From an uncultured Planctomycetia bacterium (lineage in GTDB: Bacteria > Omnitrophota > Gorgyraeia > Tantalellales > Tantalellaceae), in contig CAZGOZ010000001.1 in the NCBI GenBank assembly GCA_964528025.1, positions 4,398 to 68,397 of the forward strand: DNA of 64,000 nt, in the 5' to 3' direction. Every line of letters begins with the position of its first letter. Position 1 is the first letter of the stretch. This document shows positions 20,746-64,000 of the stretch, piece by piece. The position numbers and the translations under genes were made by a program. The notes under the pieces are model-generated. The model had not been told where the DNA came from. It was given only the letters and a program-made list of their open reading frames with translations, and did no database searches.

Positions 20746-20783
20746 CTTTTTTCACTCTTTTTTCCAGAACCTCAGTAACGCCT

Positions 20784-21467: not shown

Positions 21468-21468
21468 G

Positions 21469-22136: not shown

Positions 22137-22139
22137 ATC

Positions 22140-22964: not shown

Positions 22965-22967
22965 AAG

Positions 22968-24605: not shown

Positions 24606-24624
24606 TCAATTACCCCACTATTTT

Positions 24625-40706: not shown

Positions 40707-41903
40707 TCAGGCAATCACTTCCGAGACTACTCCCGCTCCTACAGTGCGGCCGCCTTCACGTATCGCAAATCTTAACTCTTTTTCCAACGCTACCGGCGAT
40801 ATGAGTTCCACTTCTATCGTGACGTTATCTCCGGGCATTACCATCTCTACCCCTTCGGGTAGCTTTGCCACTCCCGTTACATCCGTTGTCCGGATATAAA
40901 ACTGCGGCCGGTATCCGTTAAAAAACGGCGTGTGCCGCCCGCCTTCTTCCTTGCTCAATATATATACTTCCGCTTTGAATTTTGTATGCGGTGTGATCGT
41001 TCCCGGCGCCGCAAGCACCTGTCCTCTTTCCAGGTCTGTCTTCTCTATGCCGCGCAAGAGCACTCCCACGTTATCTCCCGCTTGACCTGAATCCAACAGC
41101 TTACGGAACATCTCTATTCCCGTTACCGTCGTCTTCCTCGTCGCGCCGAGACCCACTATCTCAATCTCTTCGCCCACTTTTACCTGGCCCCGTTCTATCC
41201 TTCCGGTGCCCACTGTTCCTCTTCCCGTTATGCTGAACACGTCTTCAACGGGCATCAGAAACGGTTTGTCTATATCTCGCACCGGCTGAGGTATAAACGT
41301 GTCCACCGCGTCCATAAGCTCGCCTATAAACTTGCAATCCTCACTGTCCAACGCGCCTTTCGCTTCCATCGCCTTTAACGCGCTGCCCTTGATTATCGGC
41401 GTATCATCGCCCGGGAAATCATATTTGCTTAAGAGTTCCCTTACCTCAAGTTCTACGAGGTCCAGAAGCTCTTTGTCGTCTACCATGTCCACCTTGTTCA
41501 TGAACACAACCAGCGCCGGCACGTTTACCTGTCTGGCCAGTAATATGTGCTCTCGTGTCTGCGGCATCGGACCGTCAGCCGCCGATACCACCAATATCGC
41601 TCCGTCCATCTGGGCCGCTCCCGTGATCATGTTCTTGATGTAATCCGCGTGCCCGGGACAATCTATATGCGCATAATGTCTTTTATCCGTCTCGTATTCC
41701 ACGTGCGCTACCGCGATTGTTATGCCTCGTTCCTTCTCTTCGGGCGCCTTATCAATCGTATCAAACGCGCGTATTTCCGCCTGCCCCTTGTTCGCCAGGT
41801 ACATCGTGATCGCGGCTGTGAGTGTCGTCTTGCCGTGGTCTACGTGCCCTATCGTTCCAATGTTCAAATGCGGCTTTGTTCTCTCAAATTTTTTCTTGGC
41901 CAT
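40707..41903 (-). CDS. tuf: Elongation factor Tu (copy 2, identical to copy 1)
   Basis: The 398 aa protein matches 25078-26274 exactly; overlapping antisense ORFs are also identical, indicating nucleotide identity. Confidence 0.95.
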
Positions 41904-41984: not shown

Positions 41985-42060
41985 GCTGGAGCCCACGGCC
42001 GGAATTGAACCGGCGACCCCATCCTTACCATGGATGTGCTCTACCAGCTGAGCTACATGG
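41985..42060 (-). tRNA. tRNA-Thr (anticodon GGT)
   Basis: The reverse complement GCCCATGTAGCTCAGCTGGTAGAGCACATCCATGGTAAGGATGGGGTCGCCGGTTCAATTCCGGCCGTGGGCTCCA folds as a cloverleaf. Confidence 0.8.
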
Positions 42061-42194
42061 GCCGTCTTGCCGAATAAAAAAATTTTCACCCGGCCCTCTT
42101 TCGAAAATGACAATAAACTACCCCATTAGCTTGGCTCGTGCAAGCGATTTACATAGGAATTTACTATAGTAAAACCAATACTATGAGATGTCGG

Positions 42195-42232
42195 AATATT
42201 GATTCTACCAAAAAAGTTTTTTATGTCAAGCG
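42195..42232 (-). promoter_or_regulatory. Candidate sigma70-type promoter for the tRNA-Thr / tuf / rpmG transcript
   Basis: On the minus strand: TTGACA (42229-42224), 16 nt spacer, TAGAAT (42207-42202). Confidence 0.45.
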
Positions 42233-42267
42233 TTATTTGTTATTTCTTATATATATGGGGGAAACGT

Positions 42268-42332
42268 AAAAAACCGGCTCTTAATTGGAGCCGGTTTTTT
42301 AATTCAACTGGAGCGAGCGATGGGAATCGGCG
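42268..42332 (-). pseudogene. 3' fragment of tRNA-Gly (about 22 nt, no cloverleaf) with its own downstream terminator hairpin
   Basis: tggagcgagcgatgggaatcg is identical to the 3' end of tRNA-Gly at 42549-42570, but the upstream sequence cannot form T, anticodon or D arms. It is followed by aaaaaccggctcttaattggagccggtttttt. Confidence 0.5.
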
Positions 42333-42509
42333 CCTCCGGGCTCGTATTATTCTACCGGCTCTCGCTATCGCTCATGCCGGAAAATATTCTCGCCCTCCGG
42401 TCGGCCACCCGCATCTTCGGTTGTGCTCGTTTCCTCCTATCCTCGGAAACTTCGCTTTATTAAAGGCTCAGATGCTCCCTTCGATTCCCTCTGTATACCC
42501 GATAGATAA

Positions 42510-42548
42510 AAAAGCCGGCCATGAAATCATGGCCGGCTTTTTAATCTA
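42510..42548 (-). terminator. Intrinsic terminator after tRNA-Gly
   Basis: On the minus strand: GCCGGCCATGATTTCATGGCCGGC followed by TTTTTTATC. Confidence 0.6.
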
Positions 42549-42622
42549 TGGAGCGAGCGATGGGAATCGAACCCACGTAGGAAGCTTGGAAGGCTTCTGC
42601 ACTACCATTGTGCTACGCTCGC
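42549..42622 (-). tRNA. tRNA-Gly (anticodon TCC)
   Basis: The reverse complement GCGAGCGTAGCACAATGGTAGTGCAGAAGCCTTCCAAGCTTCCTACGTGGGTTCGATTCCCATCGCTCGCTCCA folds as a cloverleaf. Confidence 0.8.
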
Positions 42623-42641
42623 TCCGTATGAGTTTTCCGGG

Positions 42642-42959
42642 CTATCTGTTCGCCGGCTGGAAGACCACTACTGTCTTATCTGTATCTTTTCTGGAACTCG
42701 CCAGTACGATTGGCTCCTTTGATATTATGGATATCTCAATATCGTCGTTCATTCTATCCGTCGTCCGAAAAGTTGACTTGAGCATGCCATCCGCAAGAGC
42801 TACATGAGATGTTTTCTTAAAAGCCGTTTTGCCGAAAGTTTCCGCGATTTCGTTACGCACTTTGAGACACACCGACGCAACACCGACGCGGTATTTCCAT
42901 GCCGCATAAATACCTCCAACAAGAGCGATTATAACAAGCAGGATGATTATTTTTTTCAT
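42642..42959 (-). CDS. Hypothetical small membrane-anchored protein
   Basis: MKKIIILLVIIALVGGIYAAWKY forms an N-terminal TM helix; no recognisable domain. The ORF extends upstream to 43073. Confidence 0.4.
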   Translation of the reverse strand: MKKIIILLVIIALVGGIYAAWKYRVGVASVCLKVRNEIAETFGKTAFKKTSHVALADGMLKSTFRTTDRMNDDIEISIISKEPIVLASSRKDTDKTVVVFQPANR

Positions 42960-42960
42960 A

Positions 42961-43344
42961 TTATTGCTTCTCCTCTTTTTCGGATTCTTTTCTCTGAATG
43001 GCGTCCAGATAGCTGTCAACTTCTTCCAAGCTTTTGAAAACAGCATCTTTCGGCAAAAGTTTAACAATCTCAAAAACCTTATTAATCTGCGGTTTGAGGT
43101 TAGTCATTATAAAAACACCGCCCGCGACCTCAACAATTTTCCTCGCCTGAAATATTACTCCGATACCCGCGCTACTTATATAATCCAGCTTATTCATGTC
43201 AAATATCAGGGCTTTTACGGGTTTGTCCAAGAGCGGCATTACACCCTCTTTGAACATGGGATACGTGGTGGAATCCAAACGGCCTTCCGGTCTGATTAGA
43301 TAAACACCGTCTTTCTGTTTTTTTATGTCAACACTGAAACTCAT
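42961..43344 (-). CDS. STAS-domain protein (anti-sigma-factor antagonist-like)
   Basis: 127 aa; ...LDYISSAGIGVIFQARK... is a SpoIIAA-like fold signature. Confidence 0.65.
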   Translation of the reverse strand: MSFSVDIKKQKDGVYLIRPEGRLDSTTYPMFKEGVMPLLDKPVKALIFDMNKLDYISSAGIGVIFQARKIVEVAGGVFIMTNLKPQINKVFEIVKLLPKDAVFKSLEEVDSYLDAIQRKESEKEEKQ

Positions 43345-43769
43345 TTTTCTTCCCCGGGCGAGCCCGGAACGTCTTTCTTTTCGCCGGACAACACTTTTTT
43401 TATCTGTTCAAGCAGCGCTTCGCCGCGGTATGGTTTTGCCACGTACTGTTCCGCGCCGAGCTCCATCCCGTATTCTTCGTCAAACTGGCCCCCTCGTCCG
43501 CTCAGCATGAGCACGGGGATATCTTTCATCTCCTCATCTTTCTTAAGGTTTATGAGTACGTCCCGGCCGTCCATGTCGGGCATTGCGATATCCAGTATCA
43601 CAAGATCGGGTTTTTCCTGTTTAACGACCTCTAACCCTTTCTTGCCGCCGAACGCGGATATCACCTCAAAACCCCTTTGCTCCAGAAACTCCTTTATGGT
43701 ATTAACCAGTTCTTTTTCATCGTCTATTATAACTATTCTGATTTTTGCGGCACCCTCATCCATAAACAC
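43341..43769 (-). CDS. Stand-alone response-regulator receiver (CheY-like)
   Basis: IVIIDDE ... LVILDIAMPDMDG ... a receiver domain with the phospho-acceptor Asp. Confidence 0.8.
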   Translation of the reverse strand: MFMDEGAAKIRIVIIDDEKELVNTIKEFLEQRGFEVISAFGGKKGLEVVKQEKPDLVILDIAMPDMDGRDVLINLKKDEEMKDIPVLMLSGRGGQFDEEYGMELGAEQYVAKPYRGEALLEQIKKVLSGEKKDVPGSPGEEK

Positions 43770-43781
43770 TCCCCTTTTTAT

Positions 43782-44213
43782 TTAGGCTGTCCTATCAGGG
43801 CGTTTTGCCTGGTTAACCAAAAAAGTTTTCTGCCCGAAAATCTTATCGTTGGAGTAAATCCTGAATTCATATTTCCCCGGATGCGCAAACTTGAGAGCCC
43901 CGAGGTTAAAAACAAGATCATGGATCTCAAGAGGGCTGCAAATCCTAATTTCCTTGGGTATCTCCGCCCTGCCGATAACGGAATCATTCTCCAAATCAAC
44001 CAGTTCCAGGCAGAAACGATATTTTCCGTTCAGATCCGTGAGTTTTATATACACGGCAAGAAAATGATGCACGCACGGAAACTTGAAAGCCGAGATGTTC
44101 TCAAAAATTCCGATAAGACTTTTTTTGTTCGTGCCGGCTTCCGTTATAACTTTATCGCATACAAGCATCGCATTCACTACCGGTTTGGTAACACTCGCCA
44201 TTCGTTCCTCCAT
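43782..44213 (-). CDS. Hypothetical protein, no recognised domain
   Basis: 143 aa intact ORF in an operon-like arrangement with the PilZ, REC and STAS genes. Confidence 0.4.
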   Translation of the reverse strand: MEERMASVTKPVVNAMLVCDKVITEAGTNKKSLIGIFENISAFKFPCVHHFLAVYIKLTDLNGKYRFCLELVDLENDSVIGRAEIPKEIRICSPLEIHDLVFNLGALKFAHPGKYEFRIYSNDKIFGQKTFLVNQAKRPDRTA

Positions 44214-44238
44214 ATATTTTTATATAACGAAAACCGTG

Positions 44239-44646
44239 TTAAAGCGTCGGATGTTCATCCTGCTCAAGATCCGGCGACGCCCATTTGGAATAACATTCAT
44301 CAACAACTCTGATTATTCGTTCTCTGTCTTTCTTCGTAATCTCCGAAAAAATCAACGCTACGAGAAATAGATACGGCGCCCGCAGGTCCTCAACCCGTAT
44401 CACCTCTCCCACACAACTTATGGGATCTTCTTCCGGTGAAAAGTTTACTTTGAGGTCAAGCAGCGACCCGACCTCCACTTTTTTGTTGTAATAGAAAAGC
44501 GCCCCGCCGGCCCCTATATCCAAAACGGCCACCATATCCCACCCCTCAAACGCCTTCTTGCGCCCCTTATGTTCCTTGATCTGAAACCCTATAATGAAAG
44601 GTTTTTTTACCCTCTTATATTTTCGCCGCTCTTTTCCCTTAAACAT
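44239..44646 (-). CDS. PilZ-domain protein (c-di-GMP binding)
   Basis: RRKYKR (RxxxR) motif and DIGAGGA (DxSxGG) motif. The ORF extends to 44868 across a hairpin repeat; start chosen at MFKGKERRKYKR. Confidence 0.7.
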   Translation of the reverse strand: MFKGKERRKYKRVKKPFIIGFQIKEHKGRKKAFEGWDMVAVLDIGAGGALFYYNKKVEVGSLLDLKVNFSPEEDPISCVGEVIRVEDLRAPYLFLVALIFSEITKKDRERIIRVVDECYSKWASPDLEQDEHPTL

Positions 44647-44850
44647 ATCAGCATATCCCCTTTCATAAAACGAAAAACCGCATATATACAGGATAAATAC
44701 TATTATACCCGTCCGCGCCGGATATGCAAGCGTCTCCTTGCCCGCTCGTCCCGTAGCAGAACAAGAATCACCCGCCTCTCCGTCTGTCATTCCCGCGGAA
44801 ACGGGAATCCATTCGATATGAGAAATATGCAAAAAACGGCTGTTTTTCGT

Positions 44851-44905
44851 GCTCAGGGGTGTCCCCAAAAGGCATGTCCCCCGGATGGATGTCCCCCCGG
44901 ATGGA
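44851..44905 (+). repeat. rTGTCCCC direct-repeat cluster 1 (shares a 33-mer with clusters 2 and 3)
   Basis: cgtgctcaggggtgtccccaaaaggcatgtcccccggatggatgtccccccgg. Confidence 0.8.
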
Positions 44906-44918
44906 AATAGAATTCGTA

Positions 44919-44955
44919 GGGGCGAATAATTATTCGCCCGTACGTCTTTTATTTT
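44919..44955 (+). terminator. Hairpin plus conserved CTACGTCTTTTATTTT tail (family D, plus-strand orientation)
   Basis: gtaggggcgaataattattcgcccgtacgtcttttatttt. Confidence 0.45.
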
Positions 44956-45061
44956 GAATTTCCCGGGAACGGAACGCTCTGGCCAGATGAAAGAAAAAGA
45001 AAGTAAATACTTGTATTTTCTTTCTTTTCGTGATATCCTTTAGTCAAAAGGGGGCAATAAA

Positions 45062-45301
45062 ATGACTGTACAATTATCGACCAGAATAGATTCTAAGGCA
45101 AAACAGGCGTTAGATCAGCTGCACAAGAAAACCCATGTGCCTATATGCGTTCTGACCGAAAAGGCGATCTTTTTGCTCAAGGAGAAATACGAGCGCATAA
45201 GTTCGGTGGGAAAAAAGGGCGCGGTTGATGAAGTATTTATGGGCTTACTGGACCACAGCATGAAGAAACACGATGCCACATACAAAAAACTCGCCGATTG
45301 A
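45062..45301 (+). CDS. Antitoxin (Phd/RHH-like), partner of Doc
   Basis: A 79 aa ORF overlapping the Doc gene start. The N-terminal beta-strand/helix pattern MTVQLSTRIDSKAKQALDQL looks like an RHH fold. Confidence 0.6.
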   Translation: MTVQLSTRIDSKAKQALDQLHKKTHVPICVLTEKAIFLLKEKYERISSVGKKGAVDEVFMGLLDHSMKKHDATYKKLAD

Positions 45302-45704
45302 GCCGGTTAAATATCTCAGATTAGAACAAGTGCTTGCCGTTCACACTACCCTTATCGAGCGCTACGGAGGAAGGCACGGCATCCGCGATAAAGGACTTGT
45401 TGAATCCGCTGTCTTTAGACCACAAACTACGGTTTTTGGCCGGGAAGCTTACCCCGATTTTTTCGGGAAATGCGCTGTCCTGGGATATTCCCTTATCCAA
45501 AACCATCCTTTCATCGACGGCAACAAGCGAACAGGTTTTGCTGCCATGCATCTTATGCTACTTATGAACGGCTATGATCTGACTTCCTCCACCACAGAGG
45601 AAGTCAAAATGGCAGAAAAAACAGCTTCCGGAAAAATGAAGGAATCTGAAATAGCCCTCTGGCTCAAAAAACACTCCAAGAAGAAAAGACCAAAGACAAA
45701 ATAA
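45273..45704 (+). CDS. doc: Doc/Fic-family toxin
   Basis: Fic motif HPFIDGNKRTGFAAM. The N-terminus KYLRLEQVLAVHTTLIERYGG resembles P1 Doc. The ATG at 45273 overlaps the antitoxin by 29 nt, so the true start is uncertain. Confidence 0.75.
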   Translation: MPHTKNSPIEPVKYLRLEQVLAVHTTLIERYGGRHGIRDKGLVESAVFRPQTTVFGREAYPDFFGKCAVLGYSLIQNHPFIDGNKRTGFAAMHLMLLMNGYDLTSSTTEEVKMAEKTASGKMKESEIALWLKKHSKKKRPKTK

Positions 45705-45706
45705 TG

Positions 45707-45740
45707 ATTACACTCCGGGTTTGTACACTCCCGGAGTGTA
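45707..45740 (+). terminator. Hairpin after doc
   Basis: ttacactccgggtttgtacactcccggagtgtaa followed by tttctgg. Confidence 0.45.
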
Positions 45741-45769
45741 ATTTCTGGGCCTGCTCAAAAGTGTAAAGG

Positions 45770-45895
45770 ATGTCCCCGGGTTAAAGTGTAAAGCATGTTC
45801 CAGTTGCACAGTTCTAGATGTCCCCTGTTCTAGAAGGGGGCATGTCCCCAGTTCTAGAATATACAGGGGTGTCCCCAAAAGGCATGTCCCCGGTT
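45770..45895 (+). repeat. rTGTCCCC direct-repeat cluster 2 (five motif copies)
   Basis: ggatgtccccgggtt ... agatgtcccctgttctaga ... gcatgtccccagttctaga ... caggggtgtccccaaaaggcatgtccccggtt. Confidence 0.8.
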
Positions 45896-45913
45896 ATTAC
45901 ATTAGGCGGTGAG

Positions 45914-48900
45914 TTAGGCTGCGGACCTGATATTCTTTTTTATGATTCCATTCAGTATTGGGATTATATTAACATCCATTTTTCTGACGGGCAGGCGGAA
46001 CAGGAGCTCTTTGGCCAGCTGGTTAATATCCGTTGCTTTAGTCGTCCAGTCTTCTCCCGTGAGAGTCCGATAAGCGCTGAGAAGCTTATTCATATCACCG
46101 GTTTCGAGAGCCCGAAGAGCCATCATGATACCTTCAACTTGGATTATATCGCCTTCTCCATCTTTAGTGAAGGCGAGAGCTTTCATGCCTTTGGCCTGTA
46201 CCTTTTCAACAAGTTCTTTTCCAGGACAGGCAACATCAAATTGGACCTTGTAATTTTGATACTGAGATTCTATCTGCGTTTTCAATGTTTCTAATTTTTC
46301 CATAAACTCTTCCGGCTTGACTGAATCCGCCATTGAGAGTGATACTATTTTCTCGCCATATTTTTCGTCTCTCATCTCCTGCTCAAGTGTTTTAAGTATA
46401 TCCCTTTGCTGAACAGGTAGTATTGAATCTGTAACTATGTGGCAGATAATCGTCTTGTCCGGAATACTCGGGGTAAGGCTGAGGTTTTCGGTGTGTATTT
46501 TATCGGCTTTTTCTACCTCACGCGCATCGCTGGAGCATAGCAACTCTACAAGCGCCTTCGTATCTCTAAAATCGGGCCGTGTAAAGTCGGCTAAAGCCCC
46601 GAACTTCGCCGGTTCGCCTATACCCAAACCTAAAGCGCGTCTCATTGAGGTTTCTGTTTTCGCGTATTTTAAATCCTCCGGGGAGTCACCGATCATGACA
46701 ACTTGATTGCTTTTCAAGCCGTATCTCTTTTTGACGGCTTTAATAACTTCAGATTTTTTGACAGGAGACCCTATAACCCTGGAAGAAAGCGATTCGCCCT
46801 CTTTGAGCACTTTATCGCGAAGTATTTCACCTATCTCGGTCTCGCGAACCGCCACATCCAAAACGTCTTGGGTTATGCCGCTGGCGATATATATCTCAAT
46901 CCCGTTTCTTACAAGCTCTTTTATGAATTCAACTGCACCCGGTATGTACACCTTCGGCCTGCTCTGGATGTATATAATCTGCAACCCGTTGTAGGCAATA
47001 ACGAATCTCTTGGCTATATCGGGTTCGGCTTGAATGCTGTCTATCTTTTCCTGACTTAACTTGAATTTGTTCGCCAGTTTTACGGCTAACTCCGAAAGGT
47101 CTTCGTCACTATGCCCGTTCTGTTTCGCTATACCAATCAACATATGCATCTGCTCTATACAAGGCCTGCCGGTGGTCTCACCTACAAATTTGTAGCCCTC
47201 TTTCAAATCTTCTTCCTGAGACGCATCGTCAACAGTGCAATGTGTAATATACCACCAGTTTTTAGCCCACAGCTCTTTCTTCCAGCTCAATGTCTCAAGC
47301 ATAGTCCCATCCCAGTCAATAACAGCTGCTTTTACATCCGGTTTAATACGCGCGTTAGCGGTGGGATTTTTTGCCGGTGTCTGGGTATTCATCTTAGGGT
47401 GGACGGATAAATCCACCTGTTCTGCAAGCCCTATTTCTCTAATCGATTTTTCAGCTAAATTTTTTGCTCTTTGATTTGGGCGGAAAATTAAATCAAATCC
47501 TGTTTGCTCCGGTAAAGTTTCAGGAGCTACCCCTGTTAATAGCAACTGTTCAATTTGAGGATAAATTTCTCCAATTCTATTCAACAAATCTAGCGGACTT
47601 GATAAACCTAATTGGGCATAAGAAACTACACCCGCAAAGGGATAAGCTTCTTCGTCTGGCAATACTACTTCAGCTACAATTCTTTCCCTGGCCATGATTT
47701 TTATAGCTCTTAATGGTAATTTTGATGCCTCTAACTTTTTATAATGTAGTTCGTTTTCTTGCTTAAGGTCCTCAATTTGATCCTTTAGTGTCTCCGCGCT
47801 CATTTCTTTTCTCTTTGGGGGCTCAGGAGTGTGCAAAATGGTTTCTAGGTCAGTTATTAAAAATTCATTAAGCGCTATTTGTCTAGTTAGCGTAAATTCT
47901 ACTTCAACGTATTTAGCCGTTTCTTTTCGTACAAATTCAAGAAACTCTTCTGAAGTTGGGTCTACAATTCTAACACTTATCCTGCCTACAATAGGCTTAG
48001 TACTCATACCAATGCCATTCACATAGTCTCTAATTTCTAAATCAACTCCAGGCACAAAGTAAGCAAGTCTTCTGTGTTTGTCTAACACTTCATACACCTT
48101 AAGTTCTTGCTCCCTTGTCAAGTCTCCGTACAAATGGAAATTATTAGGCTCTTCCTTTATAAGCAATTCTTCTTGTACTATGCCGCTTTCATCAATGTAA
48201 AAGTTATCAATCAACTCTTCCCATAGCACACTCACATCAGATACTATTTCACTAAAATCCTCTTTTTTGACTGGAAGACTATCTCCTTTTGTACGAATTT
48301 TAAGTGAGAGCAAAGCCTCTTGAGAATCATTTACTTGACGTACCAGTCTGAAATTATAGCTACCTGTAACCCTCATCGGGGATTCTAACATCCAACCGCT
48401 TGTGTGATGATGAAAGTCGTAATAAATAAAACTGGTTGAGAATGGAGACTCTCTTTTTTCTGATTCACTTTTAAAACGCCTGGCTAGATTCACATAACGA
48501 TGCGTGACTTCCTGTAGTGTTGCCCCAAGTACATCAACATCGGAGATAGCTGCTATACCTAAAAGCTCTTTCTCTAAATCTCTGCTTCTTTGCTCAACAT
48601 CTTCATCAGGTTGACTATCAAAACTCAAATCCATATAAGCATCTGAGCTAACTTCTCCCCTAAAGGGTTTATGTTGAATAGAATACACATCCTCTAACCA
48701 ACTGGTATCCAGAGCAAGTATCGTAGCTTGTTTCTCGTCTTGCACGTCGGCTTCGGTTTCTGGCTTTGTTTGTTGTAAATGCTTTCTTAAGAGTGTTTCA
48801 TATTGTCCGGAAACTACATCATAGAATTGGTTTATCCACTTTTCGCTTTTTTCATCCAATTCATGATTCTTCTCTTTTCCCGTTGTTTCAATAAATTCTA

Positions 48901-50059
48901 TTGCTTCTAAATAATTAATTTTTTTTCTGTCGTCACTAATCAAGTTTAGATATATGCTTGCGACAATTAATCGCATTAGAACTGTTCTGTAACGTTTCCT
49001 ATCTGTTTCCTCACGAAAATAAGTTTTATTTAATCTTTGGGCAGCATTGTTAATAAGCGAAAATGTTATTGGCAAGACATTTCCGAGCGGTAATTGCGGC
49101 TCAACGAAGTCTTCACCCCAAAGAACGAAATTTCGGAATAATAATTGCGCTCTTGTACTATTAATAACACTGGCAACATCCCCGATATTTTTTCTTTCAG
49201 GGCCATTATAGAAATCTCCCCTTACAAGATTGTCTTCGCCTATAACGGTAATATCTATACCGCTTATGCCATTTCTTCCTTCACCACAATCTTTTGGGAA
49301 TATTTTCGAAAAGTTTTCAATTTCTATATGCTCCATGGACTCACATGCATTGCCTTTAACGATAATATCCAGATCAATATCATTGGGATTATCGCTCCAG
49401 AGAAAGCTTCCAAAAACTGAAATGTTTTTTATTTCGTACTGCGGATAGTGTTCTTTAAAATAATCTATAATAGATGCTGTTCTGTTCGCCAAAACGTGAC
49501 AGGAAGACAATATCTCTTCTTGTTTTTTTTGCGGATTACCTGCATAAAAGAGATTACGTTGTAGTCTTTTTCGCAACAAATCTCTGTGCTCAGCTTCAAC
49601 TTGCTCACCTGAAAAAACTTTTGCGGGAAATTCAAACTTAAAATCTATTGGCGTGGGGAATTCAACTTGCTGCTTGTTCCCGTGTAAATCATCTAAATGC
49701 TCTTTTATTACCCTTTTCACTCCACTCTGGCTCAAGCCCATCTTCTTAACTCTATCTCTCAATAGGTTGAAATATATTATTTCAGCCTCACTTTGAAAGT
49801 TGTCCCGAAAAATACTTCTGGCATCTTCATTTAGCTCGGTGATAACGACATTACCGTTTGTTGTCTTTATGTCAACTACTGGATTGAAGAGAGATTGTAT
49901 TGCCAAAGCTGAAGTAATTGGACCCTGAAGGGAGTAACCCTGCCCGGTCATAGAAAAGGCAAGAATCACTATTATTGATATTACCCGCAATAGATAATTA
50001 TGATTATGGACGTACTTACACATGTGGGTTAGCATAACAAAAGCGTTGTTAATAAGCAA
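45914..50059 (-). CDS. Giant 1381 aa protein with an N-terminal TM/signal anchor, a minimal nucleotidyltransferase (Pol-beta superfamily) motif and a HAD-superfamily hydrolase domain
   Basis: N-terminus LLRVISIIVILAFSMTGQG. The NTase signature is VFGSFLWSDNPNDIDLDIIV (GS-x11-DxD). HAD motifs: I VIDWDGTML, II IASGIT, K KKSEVIKAVKK, IV MIGDSPED. The region and its codon usage are AT-rich. Confidence 0.7.
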   Translation of the reverse strand: MLINNAFVMLTHMCKYVHNHNYLLRVISIIVILAFSMTGQGYSLQGPITSALAIQSLFNPVVDIKTTNGNVVITELNEDARSIFRDNFQSEAEIIYFNLLRDRVKKMGLSQSGVKRVIKEHLDDLHGNKQQVEFPTPIDFKFEFPAKVFSGEQVEAEHRDLLRKRLQRNLFYAGNPQKKQEEILSSCHVLANRTASIIDYFKEHYPQYEIKNISVFGSFLWSDNPNDIDLDIIVKGNACESMEHIEIENFSKIFPKDCGEGRNGISGIDITVIGEDNLVRGDFYNGPERKNIGDVASVINSTRAQLLFRNFVLWGEDFVEPQLPLGNVLPITFSLINNAAQRLNKTYFREETDRKRYRTVLMRLIVASIYLNLISDDRKKINYLEAIEFIETTGKEKNHELDEKSEKWINQFYDVVSGQYETLLRKHLQQTKPETEADVQDEKQATILALDTSWLEDVYSIQHKPFRGEVSSDAYMDLSFDSQPDEDVEQRSRDLEKELLGIAAISDVDVLGATLQEVTHRYVNLARRFKSESEKRESPFSTSFIYYDFHHHTSGWMLESPMRVTGSYNFRLVRQVNDSQEALLSLKIRTKGDSLPVKKEDFSEIVSDVSVLWEELIDNFYIDESGIVQEELLIKEEPNNFHLYGDLTREQELKVYEVLDKHRRLAYFVPGVDLEIRDYVNGIGMSTKPIVGRISVRIVDPTSEEFLEFVRKETAKYVEVEFTLTRQIALNEFLITDLETILHTPEPPKRKEMSAETLKDQIEDLKQENELHYKKLEASKLPLRAIKIMARERIVAEVVLPDEEAYPFAGVVSYAQLGLSSPLDLLNRIGEIYPQIEQLLLTGVAPETLPEQTGFDLIFRPNQRAKNLAEKSIREIGLAEQVDLSVHPKMNTQTPAKNPTANARIKPDVKAAVIDWDGTMLETLSWKKELWAKNWWYITHCTVDDASQEEDLKEGYKFVGETTGRPCIEQMHMLIGIAKQNGHSDEDLSELAVKLANKFKLSQEKIDSIQAEPDIAKRFVIAYNGLQIIYIQSRPKVYIPGAVEFIKELVRNGIEIYIASGITQDVLDVAVRETEIGEILRDKVLKEGESLSSRVIGSPVKKSEVIKAVKKRYGLKSNQVVMIGDSPEDLKYAKTETSMRRALGLGIGEPAKFGALADFTRPDFRDTKALVELLCSSDAREVEKADKIHTENLSLTPSIPDKTIICHIVTDSILPVQQRDILKTLEQEMRDEKYGEKIVSLSMADSVKPEEFMEKLETLKTQIESQYQNYKVQFDVACPGKELVEKVQAKGMKALAFTKDGEGDIIQVEGIMMALRALETGDMNKLLSAYRTLTGEDWTTKATDINQLAKELLFRLPVRKMDVNIIPILNGIIKKNIRSAA

Positions 50060-50104
50060 CTTTTGAGGTTATAACACGGGTCCTCCGATGAGGGTTCGGA
50101 AAAA

Positions 50105-50215
50105 CGGGGTATTCCCGTGCTCAGGGGTGTCCCCAAAAGGCATGTCCCCGGTTATGGGTTTTCCAGGGGTGTCCCCAAAAGACATGTCCCCGGTTCTGGA
50201 TGTCCCCGTCCCGGA
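50105..50215 (+). repeat. rTGTCCCC direct-repeat cluster 3 (five to six copies) directly upstream of the giant gene start
   Basis: cccgtgctcaggggtgtccccaaaaggcatgtccccggttatgggttttccaggggtgtccccaaaagacatgtccccggttctggatgtccccgtcc. Confidence 0.8.
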
Positions 50216-50528
50216 CCGGACGGTCCCGGGCCGGAAATGGGGTTCCCGCCCTACCGCCGCGCGGGATCGCTTGGGGCTGTTGTTAAGAGGTAAATGTTTG
50301 TTTTGGATGTGGGGTGTTAGTATGGGGTTACTTCGATTTTCGGGGGCTGACCCCGTTTGTGTGATTTGCTTCTCTTGTATCATATGGTATAATTTAAGTA
50401 GAATACTGTGAGGGCTTATTTAGTTTGACATATGTTTTTTTCGTGGTATACTTACCGCACTTTCTTGAAAAGGCTTGGGTAATAATTTGAGATGTCAATC
50501 CCAGAATTGACTATCGCTATCAAAATTA

Positions 50529-51377
50529 TCAACCTGAGCCTTTCTCTTTTTTAGGCACCTCTTTGGATTGTTTTACATACCTGATATTAAACTTATTCCT
50601 TATTTTGACCGAAACTTTTTTAGAAGCTTCTACCCAAGTATTCACAGTTAAATCTCTTATGCCTATTTTTTTAACTAAATACTCTCTAACCAAATTTTTA
50701 TTCATAGACCCTTTGTTTTTACTTCCTTTTATTGGAAATAGATTGTTTAAAATACATCCTTGCAATAAATCGCAAACACCCATAAGCTCATATCCCTCGG
50801 CTCCAGAAACCACATCTTGTATGTGTCTTATGCGAGGTCTTGTTAAACCTTTAGAATATACATTATCTGGTATACAAAAATTTTGTTTCAAGGTATTCAT
50901 GAATTGTTTTGGATCACATCTAGACATTTTATCCAAAAAAAGTACTGCATCGTCGACTTCTCTCATTTCTTTGTTTAATAAATGCTCAGCAAGAGTACGA
51001 TAAACTCTCTGTCTTTTTATTTTATCTGGCTCTGTTGCGTCACCATATCTATGCAATTCAAGCGAATTATCCGTTCGGATTGCTACAGCAGCAAAGTAGC
51101 TATCGCTATCGATAAATTTATCAATTACTTTTTCATATACTTCTCTTGTTTTTTTTGTATAACACCAATTATATTTAATCTCTCGAAGTCGACCATTTGG
51201 TAAAATAAAATGCTCTTTCATTAGTAATTTTTTAATTTCATTAAAAAACTTTTTATGGTGGGGATTGAATAATCCTCCTAAAATAAGCCATGTATGGTTA
51301 TGGTCATATGTTTCATCTAAATATATTTTCACAATACTGCTCCCAACTTTCGCTTTATCTTTTGTGGTTTCCAGCAA
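50529..51377 (-). CDS. Hypothetical protein, possibly DUF3800-like
   Basis: 282 aa. The N-terminal KIYLDETYDHNH resembles the YxDE[ST] start of DUF3800 proteins, recalled from memory only. AT-rich. Confidence 0.3.
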   Translation of the reverse strand: MLETTKDKAKVGSSIVKIYLDETYDHNHTWLILGGLFNPHHKKFFNEIKKLLMKEHFILPNGRLREIKYNWCYTKKTREVYEKVIDKFIDSDSYFAAVAIRTDNSLELHRYGDATEPDKIKRQRVYRTLAEHLLNKEMREVDDAVLFLDKMSRCDPKQFMNTLKQNFCIPDNVYSKGLTRPRIRHIQDVVSGAEGYELMGVCDLLQGCILNNLFPIKGSKNKGSMNKNLVREYLVKKIGIRDLTVNTWVEASKKVSVKIRNKFNIRYVKQSKEVPKKEKGSG

Positions 51378-51436
51378 AACGTGTTAGACGCTTTGCCGAA
51401 ATCACGGGTCTCCCTCAGAACCTCAGCAACGCAATC

Positions 51437-51763
51437 TTAAGCCACAAGGTTTGTCTTAAGCTTTTTTCTTTTAAGCTTCCCCGTTTCCATGTGTTCATCG
51501 ATACACTCATCACATTTTGATAATCGATCAAATGCTTCTGCAATATTTTCCGCTCTGTGAGATTTTATTAATCGTACATAATCGTCATGAAACGACTCCC
51601 CCATTTTTCTCAAAAGCTCCCTGTATACATCAAGGATTCTCCCTGTCATTTGAGATAAAGAGCGATCATCACTTTCTGCTAATCGTTCCAGAAACTTTTT
51701 GCTTTCTTTCGTCAGCCTAATCTGTATTCTTTCATCTTTTTTCATAAGCTTCATTGTACGCAT
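51437..51763 (-). CDS. Ribbon-helix-helix (CopG/ParD-like) DNA-binding protein
   Basis: IQIRLTKESKKFLERLAESDDRSLSQMTGRILDVY shows a beta-strand then two helices; 108 aa. Sits upstream of the DUF3800-like gene. Confidence 0.5.
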   Translation of the reverse strand: MRTMKLMKKDERIQIRLTKESKKFLERLAESDDRSLSQMTGRILDVYRELLRKMGESFHDDYVRLIKSHRAENIAEAFDRLSKCDECIDEHMETGKLKRKKLKTNLVA

Positions 51764-51802
51764 TTGTCACCATTTGTCAACCCCCTTCCAACCCGCCTCG
51801 AA

Positions 51803-51959
51803 GAATCCCCCGGTGCCTGCCCTTGCGGGGCTTAAATTTCCCGAACGGGCAGGGTTCCCGAAGGCCGAAAGGCCTGAGGGGGAGCGAGGGAAATTTCAGA
51901 GGTCAATTTCCTCGCTGGGGAAATTGACCGTCCCCGCGGGGGCAGGTGCCGGGGGATTC
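51803..51959. other. Long inverted repeat (about 30 bp arms) enclosing nested sub-hairpins; a candidate structured RNA or regulatory element
   Basis: gaatcccccggtgcctgcccttgcggggc ... gtccccgcgggggcaggtgccgggggattc, with inner hairpins aggccgaaaggcct and gagcgagggaaatt..aatttcctcgctg. Confidence 0.4.
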
Positions 51960-51961
51960 TC

Positions 51962-52150
51962 GTGAGGGGACAACACAAAGGGCGGGGGAACCCCGCCCCT
52001 ACGTCTTTTATTTTTGTTTTTACGTTCCCGATTCAATCGTGGGCGGACAACACAAAGGGCGGGTTTGGAACCCGCCCCTACGTCTTTTATTTTTACATTT
52101 AATCGTGGCCGGACAACAAAAAGGGCGGGCACGAGGCCCGCCCTTAGGGA
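51962..52150 (+). repeat. Three tandem family D units (about 65-75 bp each), each a GGGCGGG-loop-CCCGCCC hairpin plus a CTACGTCTTTTATTTTT tail
   Basis: ggacaacacaaagggcgggggaaccccgcccctacgtcttttattttt / ggacaacacaaagggcgggtttggaacccgcccctacgtcttttattttt / ggacaacaaaaagggcgggcacgaggcccgccc. Confidence 0.7.
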
Positions 52151-52223
52151 TTTTACTTTATTGGTCCCTCGGCGCGTTCGCTTCGCTCACTTGCTCGGGA
52201 TCAATTTTTGCGGAGCAAAAATT

Positions 52224-52307
52224 GGTGGGGAGAGAAGGATTCGAACCTTCGAAGGCAGAGCCGACAGATTTACAGTCTGTTGCGTTTAACCACTTCGCTA
52301 TCTCCCC
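52224..52307 (-). tRNA. tRNA-Tyr (anticodon GTA), long variable arm
   Basis: The reverse complement GGGGAGATAGCGAAGTGGTTAAACGCAACAGACTGTAAATCTGTCGGCTCTGCCTTCGAAGGTTCGAATCCTTCTCTCCCCACCA folds as a type II tRNA. Confidence 0.8.
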
Positions 52308-52377
52308 ACGAGAGAGGGATTCCGGAATGTATTGTAGAAAACCGGAATGCGTTTGTAAAGAACTATTAGTATTAGCA

Positions 52378-52478
52378 ATGGATTCCCGCTTTCGCGGGAA
52401 TGACATCTTAACAATGGATTCCCGCTTTCGCGGGGATGACATCTTAACAATGGATCCCCGCTTCCGCGGGGATGACAT
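52378..52478. repeat. Three tandem copies of a 36 bp unit containing a family E GC hairpin
   Basis: acaatggattcccgctttcgcggggatgacatctta x3, with no unique spacers. Confidence 0.8.
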
Positions 52479-52485
52479 TTGAAAC

Positions 52486-52560
52486 TGGAGCCGGCGGAGG
52501 GATTCGAACCCCCGACCAGAGGTTTACAAAACCCCTGCTCTACCCCTGAGCTACGCCGGC
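52486..52560 (-). tRNA. tRNA-Thr (anticodon TGT)
   Basis: The reverse complement has acceptor GCCGGCG, anticodon loop TTTGTAA, T-loop TTCGAAT and encoded CCA. The anticodon call depends on the stem register. Confidence 0.65.
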
Positions 52561-52600
52561 TCGCTCTGCACCATCACCCCTTCGGGGTTAGGTGCTGGGG

Positions 52601-53461
52601 TTATAAACCTGCTTTATCAAACGCTTCGGGCATGTATGTTAGAATGTCGGAAGCGGTCATGCAAAACTGTCCTTTTTTATCGGCGGCTATGTCGCCGGCC
52701 AGGCCGTGGATGTATACTGCGGCGACTGTTGCGCTGTAAGCGTCTATACTCTGCCCTATGAACGATACGATCATTCCGGTCAGAACGTCGCCCGTGCCGC
52801 CCGAGGCCATGCCGGAATTACCGGTCTTGTTCACATAAACTTTTCCTTGCGGATCCGCAACGACGGTTTCGTGGCCTTTAAGGCATACGATTGCGCCGGT
52901 TAGCTCGGCAACGCTACGCGCGATGCTTTCCCGGCTCGCCTGCACTTCATCCGCGACCTTACCCGTCAGGCGCGCCATCTCACCGGGATGCGGCGTAATG
53001 ACTGTTTGCGCCTGTCTGGCTGTTAAGGGACTAAGATCACCCTCAAGGGCATTTATTCCGTCGGCGTCCAGAACAACAGGCATCGTCAGTTCTTCAAGCA
53101 GTTCTCTGACGAGTTTCTGCGTTTCATTATCGGTTCCCAGGCCGGGGCCTATCGCAACGGCATTACATTTCTTCGCGAAATGCAGTATCTCTTTTTTCGC
53201 CTTGAGCGCCAAAGATAAATTCTTCGTCTCCGGAAGAGGCAGAGTCATGACTTCGGTCAGCTTGGTCTCCATTATTGAGTTCAATAATCGCGGGATACCG
53301 TTCGTGACAAGACCGCTGCCCGAGATGAGCGCGCCCTGTGACGACAGAAACGCCGCGCCCGTCATCCCCCGCGAACCCGCGAGAATTAATACCCTGCCGT
53401 AATCACCCTTGTGAGAATCTTTTTTGCGACCGGAAATCTTCTTTATATGTTCATGCACCAT
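52601..53461 (-). CDS. nnrD: ADP-dependent NAD(P)H-hydrate dehydratase (YjeF C-terminal domain)
   Basis: KGDYGRVLILAGSRGMTGAAFL. Confidence 0.8.
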   Translation of the reverse strand: MVHEHIKKISGRKKDSHKGDYGRVLILAGSRGMTGAAFLSSQGALISGSGLVTNGIPRLLNSIMETKLTEVMTLPLPETKNLSLALKAKKEILHFAKKCNAVAIGPGLGTDNETQKLVRELLEELTMPVVLDADGINALEGDLSPLTARQAQTVITPHPGEMARLTGKVADEVQASRESIARSVAELTGAIVCLKGHETVVADPQGKVYVNKTGNSGMASGGTGDVLTGMIVSFIGQSIDAYSATVAAVYIHGLAGDIAADKKGQFCMTASDILTYMPEAFDKAGL

Positions 53462-53843
53462 CTTTTACCCCCACTGCGCTGGATATTGCAAGATCTTTTG
53501 TATGAGAAATACTTATAAAGACCCGTGAAAGGCCGTATTTTTTCTTTAATCGTTCGGCTTCGCCGTGCAGAACGACATATGGTTTACCATCAGAGTCGTT
53601 CAATATCTCAATTTCCGGCCAGTTGAGCCCTATACGCGCGCCTTCAGGAAGCGCTTTTTTCACCGCTTCCTTGGCGGCGAATTTACCGGCCATGTGCGCC
53701 GGCGCCGGGGTTGTTTTTCCATTGGCATGAGCCAGCTCTTTTTCCGTGAATATTCTCTTCAGAAAATTCATGCCGCGCTGATCTATCACCCGCTGAAACC
53801 GTTCTATTTTTACGGCATCCACGCCTATCCCTAAAACGCTCAT
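53451..53843 (-). CDS. acpS: Holo-ACP synthase
   Basis: MSVLGIGVDAVKIERF. Confidence 0.8.
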   Translation of the reverse strand: MSVLGIGVDAVKIERFQRVIDQRGMNFLKRIFTEKELAHANGKTTPAPAHMAGKFAAKEAVKKALPEGARIGLNWPEIEILNDSDGKPYVVLHGEAERLKKKYGLSRVFISISHTKDLAISSAVGVKDGA

Positions 53844-54556
53844 TTTATAAGATCCTTCATCTCTTTTACCGCCGCGGATATCCCCACGAACACCGCTCGT
53901 GATATTATTGAATGACCGATATTGACCTCATGCATGCCTACGATACGCGCCACAGGAGTTACATTAAGATAATTCAACCCGTGCCCGGCGCATGCTATAA
54001 GCTCTTTACTTATAGCATGTTCTGTCATGCCACGCAAGATCTCAAGCTCTTTTTCATGATCGCCGCCTGAGTTAAACACTTCGGCGTATCGGCCGGTGTG
54101 AAACTCTATCATGCCGGCGCCTGTCTTGCGGGCGGCTTGTATCTGCGACGCCTCCGGATCAATAAAAAGGCTTACCTCTATACCGGATGCCGTCAGCTTC
54201 TCAACGACCTCTTTCACTCTATCAAAATTACCCGCAACGTCAAGCCCGCCCTCGGTAGTTATTTCCTTGCGGTTCTCGGGAACAAGCGTCGCCCGGCGCG
54301 GCCGGGTTCTGCACGCGATATCAACAATCTCGGAATCTACCGACATTTCAAGGTTTAGTTTTGTCGTAACGGTTTTTTTTAGAGCCGCCAGATCCGCATC
54401 GTTTATGTGACGCCTGTCTTTTCGGAGATGACAAACGATTCCATCGCATCCGGCTTTTTCACAAAGAACAGCCGCTTTTACCGGGTCGGGTTCAAACGTT
54501 TTACGCGCTTCCCGCACAGTAGCAACATGATCAATGTTTACTCCGAGTTCAACCAT
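53840..54556 (-). CDS. pdxJ: Pyridoxine 5'-phosphate synthase
   Basis: GVNIDHVATVR. Confidence 0.85.
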   Translation of the reverse strand: MVELGVNIDHVATVREARKTFEPDPVKAAVLCEKAGCDGIVCHLRKDRRHINDADLAALKKTVTTKLNLEMSVDSEIVDIACRTRPRRATLVPENRKEITTEGGLDVAGNFDRVKEVVEKLTASGIEVSLFIDPEASQIQAARKTGAGMIEFHTGRYAEVFNSGGDHEKELEILRGMTEHAISKELIACAGHGLNYLNVTPVARIVGMHEVNIGHSIISRAVFVGISAAVKEMKDLIK

Positions 54557-60367: not shown

Positions 60368-60530
60368 AATTGGTAGGTCACCCTAAAGGGTGACCTACGA
60401 CTTTTCTCTTTGCTGGTAGGTCACCCTAAAGGGTGACCTACGACTTTTCTCTTTGCTGGTAGGTCACCCTAAAGGGTGACCTACGGCTTTTCTCTTTGCT
60501 GGTAGGTCACCCTAAAGGGTGACCTACTCT
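60368..60530. repeat. Four tandem 43 bp units, each with a perfect 26 bp palindrome
   Basis: gctggtaggtcaccctaaagggtgacctacgacttttctcttt x4. The spacers are identical, so this is not a CRISPR array. Confidence 0.85.
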
Positions 60531-63809: not shown

Positions 63810-63840
63810 CCTTCGTTTCGGGCGGGCACAAGGCCCGCCC
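63785..63840 (+). terminator. Two tandem GGGCGGG hairpins (family D) immediately after the nadC stop
   Basis: gggcggggaaaccccgcccctac ... cgtttcgggcgggcacaaggcccgcccctac. The second is a 31 bp exact copy of 3968-3998. Confidence 0.5.
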
Positions 63841-64000
63841 CTACATTATTTCTAAACTGAAATCAAGCGGTGATATGGTGGAAGTCAGGGCACCGATTGA
63901 GATGATATCAACGCCTGTTTTCGCGTAACTCTTGATGTTTTTATTTGTAATGCCTCCCGAGGCCTCGTATAGCACTTTTTTTGCGAGACCCATCTTTTGC
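63841..64000 (-). CDS. nadC: Nicotinate-nucleotide pyrophosphorylase (C-terminal fragment; gene continues off window)
   Basis: The hand-translated end is ...GLAKKVLYEASGGITNKNIKSYAKTGVDIISIGALTSTISPLDFSLEIM with stop TAG at 63843-63841. Not in the ORF track. Confidence 0.6.
   Translation of the reverse strand, partial: QKMGLAKKVLYEASGGITNKNIKSYAKTGVDIISIGALTSTISPLDFSLEIM

Follow-up and report, generated by a model that had tools for sequence, protein, structure and literature searches.

In a 64,000-nt stretch of contig CAZGOZ010000001.1 (hereafter the window), which belongs to an uncultured member of Candidatus Omnitrophota, a conserved tRNA gene array is interrupted by 9.6 kb of DNA. We consider that this DNA is probably a lineage-specific accessory insert in a tRNA operon, which consists of two composition layers, encodes a mosaic enzyme predicted to be exported and contains copies of dispersed repeats. 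It carries a toxin-antitoxin pair, genes for a ribbon-helix-helix (RHH) regulator and a DUF3800-like protein, an operon with a PilZ-domain gene, and a large gene (the big gene) whose product combines a nucleotidyltransferase (NTase) module with a HAD phosphatase domain (Table 1). The assignment to Candidatus Omnitrophota comes from the nearby nnrD gene, encoding NAD(P)H-hydrate dehydratase, whose top species-representative match is 74% identical.

The array order nnrD - tRNA-Thr(tgt) - tRNA-Tyr - tRNA-Gly(tcc) - tRNA-Thr(ggt) - tuf - tRNA-Trp is kept in relatives (related loci are denoted by L numbers, and related proteins by P numbers). In five of them (L005, L009, L012, L013 and L040), the gap between tRNA-Tyr and tRNA-Gly is 11-74 nt, as compared with 9.6 kb in the window, and the insert was therefore delimited as 42623-52222. 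None of its genes was found in synteny at the 80 related loci. The Tyr-Gly region is filled differently in L006, L045, L029 and L082: L029, the closest GTDB relative (nnrD 74%), carries a serine-recombinase fragment and a PD-(D/E)XK-like gene 3' of tRNA-Tyr, both unrelated to the insert, together with a toxin-antitoxin pair ahead of tRNA-Thr, and in L006 and L045 other small genes occupy the tRNA gaps. In this lineage, the tRNA array is a hot spot of variation, and the presence of accessory DNA at this tRNA site is supported. The original prediction, made from the letters of the window, had proposed an island of acquired DNA at 45-52 kb beside tRNA-Tyr and tRNA-Thr, punctuated by three rTGTCCCC clusters. 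The genes, the tRNA neighbours and the clusters were all recovered (gene calls, ARAGORN and motif count), and the acquired character at a tRNA site agrees with the gap lengths and the 80 loci of the relatives. The genes at 45-52 kb do lie inside the insert, but the insert is larger than proposed and includes the PilZ operon.

The insert was also found in other assemblies of the same species. An ENA contig (ERZ27245787) and a JGI contig (3300022553) are 100% identical to window positions 42000-54000 and 42204-54000, respectively, and both span the insert, while the contigs Ga0208325 and Ga0163203, each 99.9% identical, cover only 42204-50092 and 49861-54000. SRR6481098 is a further sample with this species, and across the four or five samples in which the species occurs, no variation in the presence of the insert was seen.

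Other features of the array were noted separately. Homologous open reading frames (ORFs) of ~200-260 amino acids (aa) lie in the tRNA-Thr/tRNA-Tyr gap of L006 (4116-4736) and L045 (10907-11686), and resemble, by eye, a helix-turn-helix plus LAGLIDADG-like endonuclease. In the window, the 21-nt 3' end of tRNA-Gly (42549-42569) recurs at 42309-42329, each copy with its own terminator hairpin beside it. Between tRNA-Gly and tRNA-Thr(ggt), the region 42271-42569 has the look of a ~240-nt att-like scar, as would be left if integrative elements had used this tRNA operon. The two tuf genes of the window (25078-26274 and 40707-41903) share stretches of at least 300 nt at 100% identity.

The base composition divides the insert into two parts. 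Relative to a background set of 30 genes (GC 0.490 ± 0.019; GC at third codon positions, GC3, 0.536 ± 0.033), the GC3 z-scores range from -3.7 to -8.9 across 47.3-51.8 kb and from -2.5 to +0.9 in the remaining insert. The DUF3800-like gene (GC3 0.244, z -8.9) is the most AT-rich gene of the window, and the RHH gene at 51437-51763 (0.339) and codons 1-905 of the big gene (0.29-0.41) are likewise strong outliers. Near-host values were obtained for the HAD part (0.511) and the C-terminal tail (0.453) of the big gene, doc (0.458), the RHH_3 antitoxin gene (0.537) and the PilZ operon (0.47-0.57). The break falls inside the big gene, near aa 905 or 47.3 kb, and the gene is compositionally chimeric. 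The deviant composition expected of a tRNA-site island is therefore confined to 47.3-51.8 kb. The proposal that all four island genes are markedly AT-richer than the flanks holds for the RHH gene, the DUF3800-like gene and big-gene codons 1-905 (4-9 s.d. in GC3), but not for doc, the antitoxin gene, the HAD part or the C-terminal part.

The big protein is numbered here from the farthest TTG (1381 codons), and has 1369 aa if started at M13. The ATG at 50023 lies 7 nt past the -10 hexamer of a promoter-like sequence of the sigma-70 type, implying that the mRNA is probably leaderless. A word-index search with the whole protein returned only itself, on a 4.3-kb Logan contig, and the word-index searches with the protein and with the N-module and C-module alignments together returned only itself, P0044 and P0073. 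The family census below comes from one exhaustive search with aa 1-905 as the query, in which relatives matched module by module only. At the N-terminus, aa 13-130 (a signal-peptide-like start and the conserved N-module of ~100 aa) align with the starts of other proteins (alignment A2), which have a positively charged n-region, a 12-17-residue h-region and an AxA/S small-x-small site, followed by a conserved domain of ~90 aa. On this by-eye reading of the N-termini, the protein would begin with a Sec signal peptide. The signal/transmembrane-anchored giant protein of the original prediction thus keeps its signal-peptide-like start, and its family links it to ordinary enzyme domains.

The NTase module (aa 131-430) was assigned from several lines of evidence. 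The initial Pol-beta NTase match in the ORF was weak, but both the hG[GS]x9-13Dh[DE]h motif and the fold were found, and the G-S...D-x-D motif is invariant across 28 aligned sequences. The alignment profile matches MNT-type nucleotidyltransferases in the PDB, and an AlphaFold model of the module (pLDDT 86.9) matched ANT(4')/KNTase, AAD(9) and AadA with a Foldseek probability of 1.0 and TM scores of 0.33-0.44. Unlike these antibiotic NTases, the module is embedded in a 1369-aa protein that is predicted to be exported, and the similarity is at the fold level only, with 9-16% identity and TM scores of 0.33-0.44 over a set that also includes the AMPylation domain of Legionella DrrA. Its relatives are regions within proteins of 2.7-7.5 thousand aa (kaa) and many stand-alone proteins of 270-350 aa, the latter with no Pfam match. 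Directly after the module, aa 401-456 weakly match the first 45 positions of the family C-module described below in a one-sequence search, which is only suggestive of a remnant.

The ~370-aa mid module (aa 483-853) is shared with four stand-alone proteins (P0003, P0006, P0007 and P0012); two of these start with a signal peptide of their own. It yielded no Pfam, NCBIfam or PDB match, and its AF2 model (pLDDT 58) was too poor for use. The HAD domain has intact catalytic motifs (DWDGT, ASGIT with S/T, and GDSPED). The tail of 247 aa was tried as a divergent C-module, as its end (..NIRSAA) and that of the C-module (..KAMKSA) look alike by eye; this was rejected, with no support from hmmsearch or hhalign. 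PDB sequence searches with the C-module, the mid module, HAD plus tail, and the DUF3800-like protein gave nothing significant. A separate observation concerns L130 (Ga0208325_1000918, 7.9 kb), in which all eight mismatches to the window fall, at the contig end, within the promoter and signal-peptide codons of the big gene (49964-50090); they may reflect strain variation or a join to the 5' end of a paralogue. The big protein would most likely be an exported or envelope-anchored bifunctional enzyme, which would nucleotidylylate and dephosphorylate a small-molecule or envelope substrate.

The composition also points to a history of the insert in layers. An older or ameliorated, host-like layer would comprise the PilZ-DUF6941-receiver-STAS operon, the RHH_3/Doc pair, and the HAD domain and C-terminal third of the big gene. 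A younger, AT-rich layer at 47.3-51.8 kb would comprise the Arc-like repressor, the DUF3800-like gene (RNase H-like, of a type found in phages and mobile genetic elements) and big-gene codons 1-905, and may have recombined in frame into a resident gene. An ancestral N-NTase-C protein may have been joined in frame to the other pieces, since a weak C-module start occurs at aa 401-456 and the GC breaks within the gene. The Doc/RHH pair would act as a stabilising addiction module, and the Arc-DUF3800 genes would be mobile-element baggage.

The N-module heads a small, uncharacterised family in which the enzyme cores are swapped. The cores are GHKL plus PPDK_N (P0014), GHKL plus radical SAM (P0015), GDPD (P0016), methyltransferase (P0021), HAD (P0023), NAD epimerase (P0026), histidine phosphatase (P0043), ARMT1-like plus acyltransferase (P0062), and GHKL plus ARMT1-like in the protein from L082. 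A C-module of ~230 aa, ending in ..GQLKAMKSA, closes 13 N-module proteins, and was not detected in aa 1135-1381 of the window protein by hmmsearch or hhalign. P0009 consists of little more than its N- and C-modules. Pfam and NCBIfam cover neither the N-, the C- nor the mid module. Upstream of seven family genes, the DNA contains a TTGnnT-17-TAtAaT promoter with the ATG 7-9 nt past the -10, implying that the family mRNAs may be leaderless. A metagenome scan with the N-module pattern and a viral scan with the C-module found no match. In another metagenome contig, L103 (Ga0208325_1000086, 8794-12875; this metagenome holds the window species), a gene of 1330 aa is preceded, at a distance of 65 nt, by a dispersed rTGTCCCC element; the gene product combines a signal peptide with a GT4-like glycosyltransferase motif and a divergent C-module whose end is ..MESSA.

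Wherever the GC of the host is higher, the family genes are AT-richer than their neighbours (GC3 0.355 vs 0.63 in L089, 0.30 vs 0.40-0.47 in L092, and 0.27 vs 0.37-0.45 in L083). Three of the four members with readable upstream DNA adjoin a tRNA gene, on its 3' side; the L092 gene follows coaX, with no adjoining tRNA. In L082 (nnrD 64% identical), a split family gene stands directly after tRNA-Tyr, downstream of nnrD. In L089 (NCBI GCA_034723315.1, JAYEOV010000043.1, 9533-13981), the family gene follows tRNA-Gln, and an exact 29-nt copy of the tRNA-Gln 3' end lies just beyond it; the 3'-end copies are at 9772, 12246 (29 nt) and 13953. These copies bound a single-gene N-module-HAD-C-module block, and a second block, with shorter tRNA-end copies, holds a DUF6036 gene and a 223-aa gene. 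Both blocks are far AT-richer than their neighbours, and no integrase is present there. Because the genes are AT-richer than their higher-GC hosts and three of four follow a tRNA gene, we infer that they are horizontally moving, self-promoted single-gene cassettes.

Apart from its family gene, L082 (1-20369; ENA ERZ21831086 contig_51) has an 8-kb insert between nnrD and tRNA-Thr, which includes a gene for a 1178-aa Fic protein and a partial tandem duplication with a pseudo-tRNA-Thr, and three Y1 (IS200/RAYT-type) transposase genes lie downstream of it. Fic/Doc genes stand beside N-module genes in three genomes (window 45273-45704, L086 4344-5402 and L082 1230-4766), which may be a coincidence or a linkage.

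The rTGTCCCC clusters and the edge hairpins are local copies of dispersed repeat families, resembling repetitive extragenic palindromic (REP) sequences or miniature inverted-repeat transposable elements (MITEs), rather than cassette borders or att sites. The window contains 16 copies of RTGTCCCC where 2.8 would be expected, and 13 of them lie in the three clusters (44859-44896, 45770-45891 and 50127-50207), all on the plus strand. In a metagenome scan, the 26-nt core GGGGTGTCCCCAAAAGRCATGTCCCC was found at 31 other stretches, in many contigs of two JGI metagenomes that hold this species at 99.86-99.9% identity. Since the core is multi-copy at these places, the clusters are not cassette borders or att sites. 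Of the 36 core copies outside the window, four have an AT-rich flank, as compared with 8% of background tiles, and 32 lie in normal-GC DNA; the idea that the clusters divide the island into segments was therefore abandoned. The copies occur in either orientation relative to genes, and four cores fall within 5.3 kb at the insert. An anchored alignment gave an element of ~70 nt, ..CAAAAACGGnnnATTTTCGTGCTCAGGGGTGTCCCCAAAAGGCATGTCCCCnGTTCT, with a sharp right end, often trailed by extra ATGTCCCCnGTTCT units of 15-16 nt. The left part of a longer element subfamily also occurs at 4086-4179 of the window.

Each repeated intergenic piece of the island is multi-copy in same-species contigs, including the hairpins at 44900-44955 and 51978-52093, and the 36-nt hairpin at 52372-52479 has many further copies there. 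As the hairpins belong to dispersed families, CGCCCsTACGTCTTTTATTTT (44935, 51994 and 52073) was rejected as an att site. No RAYT or other transposase gene was seen in the partial genome (the 64-kb window plus ~195 kb of flanks), in which no search was aimed at one; Y1_Tnp occurs in the relative L082. The ~70-nt length, the sharp end, the dozens of copies, the two orientations and the frequent position beside hairpin repeats recall REP/BIME, ERIC and Correia elements, but the sequence is unrelated to the described families, and the ATGTCCCCnGTTCT units that often trail the core are a further difference. Beyond the insert, several unrelated repeat families, dispersed or tandem, crowd the intergenic DNA across the ribosomal-protein region; among them are AT-rich inverted repeats, hairpins and a 43-nt hairpin tandem (3965, 4086-4179, 11931-16018, 15149-24748, 18331/29312/37831, 60371-60527, 61480 and 63770-63844).

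The NTase, HAD, Doc, RHH and DUF3800 assignments of the original prediction all hold (Pfam, NCBIfam, profile and fold matches). For Doc, TIGR01550 gave 81 bits (cut-off 38.65) and Pfam Fic gave 77.7 bits (cut-off 24), and the Fic motif is intact. Pfam returned no Phd/YefM match for the antitoxin, which has an RHH_3 fold; of the predicted Phd/Doc pair, Doc stands, and the pair is not a strict Phd/Doc. The Doc of phage P1 Phd/Doc is a Fic-fold kinase of EF-Tu. The pair here resembles it in its Doc-family toxin, with an intact HxFx(D/E)GNKR motif, and in the small overlapping antitoxin gene upstream, but differs in the antitoxin, which in P1 has a Phd/YefM fold. The PilZ gene probably starts at M75 (44646), because dispersed repeats extend over the opening codons of the ORF.

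The true start of the RHH gene is probably a few codons downstream of 51763. The direct repeat GTGACAAATG x2 at its promoter is a possible operator. The DUF3800 assignment passes the Pfam cut-off marginally and is backed by a full-length phrog_3732 match; the protein has no PADLOC and no PDB match, and a viral collection scan with DUF3800 gave none. A separate, strong promoter-like site at 50425-50452 (plus strand; TTGACA-16-TATACT with an extended TG) is aimed into the 3' end of this gene and could drive an antisense or small RNA. The fold of the intergenic region 50060-50528 is not unusually stable (z -2.05).

The imperfect palindrome at 51796-51965 has a predicted folding energy of -140.8 kcal/mol, with z-scores of -9.8 on the plus and -7.5 on the minus strand, and is single-copy in the window and in same-species contigs. 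It is either a structured RNA candidate or a MITE. DUF3800 genes are accompanied by the structured RNA motifs DUF3800-I to -XI (Weinberg et al. 2017, PMC5737381), and the hairpin of 170 nt beside the DUF3800-like gene could be a twelfth kind. As with those motifs, a very stable GC-rich element followed by a terminator (the terminator-like hairpin at 51980-52000) lies ~420 nt from the DUF3800-like start codon. Unlike them, it gave no match to any DUF3800 motif or other Rfam model at E values up to 10, and it is perhaps a MITE; the Rfam scan found no families other than tRNAs.

Table 1 Features of the insert and its borders in window coordinates.
Feature	Position	Strand	Evidence and remarks
tRNA-Gly(tcc), downstream border of insert	42549..42622	-	ARAGORN; Rfam
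Small membrane protein	42642-42959	-	Part of PilZ operon
STAS anti-sigma antagonist	42961-43344	-	Part of PilZ operon
Receiver domain	43341-43769	-	Part of PilZ operon
DUF6941	43782-44213	-	Part of PilZ operon; near-host composition
PilZ-domain gene	44239..44868	-	Pfam PilZ 2.6e-10; domain from aa 80
Repeat cluster 1, one full core + two short units	44832..44896	+	
Palindromic hairpin GTAGGGGCGAATAA/TTATTCGCCCGTAC plus TCTTTTATTTT	44900..44955	.	Dispersed family member
RHH_3 antitoxin	45062..45301	+	Pfam PF12651 32.8 bits, cut-off 21.6; 29-nt overlap with doc
Doc toxin, Fic fold, motif HPFIDGNKR	45273..45704	+	Pfam Fic 1.3e-21; TIGR01550; phrog_577 1e-40
Repeat cluster 2, one full core + short units	45770..45897	+	Between convergent doc and big-gene ends
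Big mosaic gene	45914..50023	-	1381-codon ORF 45914-50059
C-terminal tail, 247 aa, aa 1135-1381	45917..46657	-	No assignment
HAD phosphatase domain, aa 909-1134	46658..47335	-	Pfam PF00702 1.5e-13, 52 bits, cut-off 26.4
Mid module, aa 483-853	47501..48613	-	Shared with stand-alone proteins
Candidate remnant of family C-module start, aa 401-456, KWINQF...ILALDTSWLE	48692..48859	-	hmmsearch E 0.003
NTase module, aa 131-430	48770..49669	-	Pol-beta fold + helical bundle
Predicted signal peptide + N-module, aa 13-130	49670..50023	-	N-termini of at least 15 proteins, E 2e-26 to 1e-4
Predicted big-gene promoter TTGCTT-17-TATGCT	50030..50059	-	
Repeat cluster 3, two full cores (..CGTGCTCAGGGGTGTCCCCAAAAGRCATGTCCCCnGTTCT) + one short unit	50096..50207	+	
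DUF3800-like protein, 282 aa	50529..51377	-	Pfam PF12686 22.2 bits, cut-off 21; phrog_3732 2e-8
Arc/CopG-like RHH protein, 108 aa	51437..51763	-	Pfam RHH_5 0.003, below cut-off; PHROG Arc-like repressor 8.5e-7
Promoter-like TTGACA-16-TACAAT for RHH gene	51753..51780	-	Overlaps GTGACAAATG x2 direct repeat
Imperfect GC-rich palindrome, ~170 nt, two inner hairpins	51796..51965	+	Upstream of RHH-DUF3800 genes
Three tandem terminator-like hairpins GGGCGGG..CCCGCCC + T-rich tail	51978..52145	-	After tRNA-Tyr; dispersed family
tRNA-Tyr(gta), upstream border of insert	52223..52307	-	ARAGORN; Rfam
Three tandem 36-nt hairpin repeats, REP-like	52372..52479	+	Copies at 3225, 17564, 17609, 44785
tRNA-Thr(tgt), first tRNA of array	52486..52560	-	ARAGORN; Rfam 68 bits; same order in relatives

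Several observations weigh against the accessory insert and its proposed history. No copy of the tRNA-Tyr 3' end, nor any other unique att-like repeat, lies inside the insert, and none of the ORFs scanned matched recombinase or integrase families (the intergenic gaps are at most 505 nt), as the original prediction had stated for integrases. The comparison of gene neighbourhoods that it had called for gave a divided answer: the insert genes are absent from the 80 related loci, but there is no presence/absence polymorphism within the species, the four other assemblies being 99.86-100% identical over the insert parts they cover. The nearest available relatives are distant (nnrD at most 74%), and comparison with them shows neither in which direction nor when the event took place. 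Instead of marking recent transfer, the low GC could be a built-in property of the gene family, and the L082 member at the same spot could mean an ancestral position rather than repeated insertion. The proposed export derives from reading N-terminal sequences by eye, and the in-frame fusion history from composition and one weak motif match (E 0.003).

Some of these points suit the view that the region is not foreign, being a vertically inherited, fast-evolving locus with low GC due to the gene family or to expression. The region is 99.9-100% identical in every sample holding the species, it lacks an att site and an integrase, the family genes have a GC3 of ~0.27-0.36 whatever the host, and L082 (nnrD 64%) has its member at the same position after tRNA-Tyr. 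We nevertheless regard this view as unlikely, as L029 (nnrD 74%) has unrelated genes after tRNA-Tyr, including the serine-recombinase fragment, the tRNAs are adjacent in most relatives, the GC3 break falls within one gene, duplicated tRNA ends flank the L089 copy on both sides, and the RHH and DUF3800-like proteins match phage protein families. The defence or conflict island of the original prediction, in which the NTase-HAD protein, the nuclease-like DUF3800 protein, the RHH regulator and Doc would act jointly against phages or other invaders, is decidedly unlikely. The PADLOC system models gave only weak, domain-level matches (Doc, the NTase motif and the receiver domain), with no DUF3800 or RHH match and 16-19 bits only at the NTase motif of the big protein. 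The genes are divided between the two strands and have separate promoters, a signal peptide is predicted for the big protein, the family cores are ordinary enzymes, and the stand-alone relatives of the modules are absent from defence libraries. The idea draws on weak matches of Doc to the PADLOC candidate families PDC-S23 and PDC-M59B, on the similarity of the NTase fold to Hailong HalB as well as to MNT-type NTases, on the resemblance of its helical half to HEPN bundles, and on the description of DUF3800 as RNase H-like and often tied to mobile elements and defence loci (PMC13594972).

It is very improbable that the rTGTCCCC clusters are recombination sites bounding mobile cassettes, as in an integron- or tycheposon-like array mobilised in trans. 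A 32-nt core does lie at each border of the toxin-antitoxin block and of the big-gene block, exact att-like repeats enclose the L089 family gene as a single-gene cassette, and short-read contigs break at the cores. However, such breaks are expected at any multi-copy repeat, the element recurs at 31 or more sites elsewhere, most of them in normal-GC DNA, and faces either way with respect to genes, no recombinase is nearby, and the GC break at 47.3 kb coincides with none of the clusters. We therefore retain the accessory insert with two composition layers as the probable explanation.

The class of tRNA-associated genomic islands takes in remnants without an integrase as well as tandem arrays, for example of the tycheposon type. 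The insert is like such islands in its position beside tRNA genes, its deviant composition, its toxin-antitoxin and phage-type cargo, and the differing cargo that related genomes have at this site. It is unlike them in lacking an integrase, a duplicated tRNA 3' end and strain polymorphism, and in lying inside a tRNA operon upstream of tuf.

Passages of Omnitrophota preprints describe long, membrane-associated multi-enzyme proteins, with PilZ genes downstream of the giant genes (bioRxiv 10.1101/2023.11.21.568195, 10.64898/2026.06.07.730766). As described in those passages, the long proteins share with the window protein and its family a signal peptide or transmembrane anchor, tiled HAD, GHKL, methyltransferase and radical SAM domains, and a PilZ gene downstream, and proteins of 2.7-7.5 kaa also contain the NTase module. 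The window protein differs in having only 1.4 kaa and in being encoded in a tRNA-site insert, and the passages on N-termini and signal peptides contain no description of the N-module or C-module. The window protein looks like a small relative of the Omnitrophota long proteins.

In polymorphic toxins and MARTX-type effectors, conserved terminal modules surround interchangeable enzymatic cores. At the family level, the N-module proteins are alike in having conserved terminal modules around exchangeable enzyme cores; the window protein is unlike these effectors in that it has no C-module and no recognisable autoprocessing domain. No secretion system, immunity gene or autoprocessing domain was found near the window gene or in the neighbours of the L082, L083, L086, L089 and L092 genes.

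As an island, the insert would be routine accessory DNA, and its repeats are junk-like and genome-wide. What is worth keeping is the gene family, with its conserved ends around exchangeable enzymes, its own putative leaderless promoter and its AT-rich composition. A bolder proposal, which we hold to be doubtful, is that the N-module genes form an undescribed pool of self-promoted, leaderless single-gene cassettes moving among Omnitrophota, mostly beside tRNA genes, and encode Sec-exported enzymes that need cytoplasmic cofactors (NTP, SAM, NAD and Fe-S). If this were true, the N- and C-modules would serve delivery or maturation, the enzymes would act inside a host or prey cell, and the family would provide a phylum that is thought to live by parasitism or predation with a modular effector system. 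A separate and equally doubtful proposal reads the 170-nt hairpin as a new RNA. The Omnitrophota are uncultivated and probably host-dependent, and their long multi-enzyme proteins are unexplained; an apparently mobile version of this architecture, at 0.6-1.4 kaa, would offer a practical experimental entry point.

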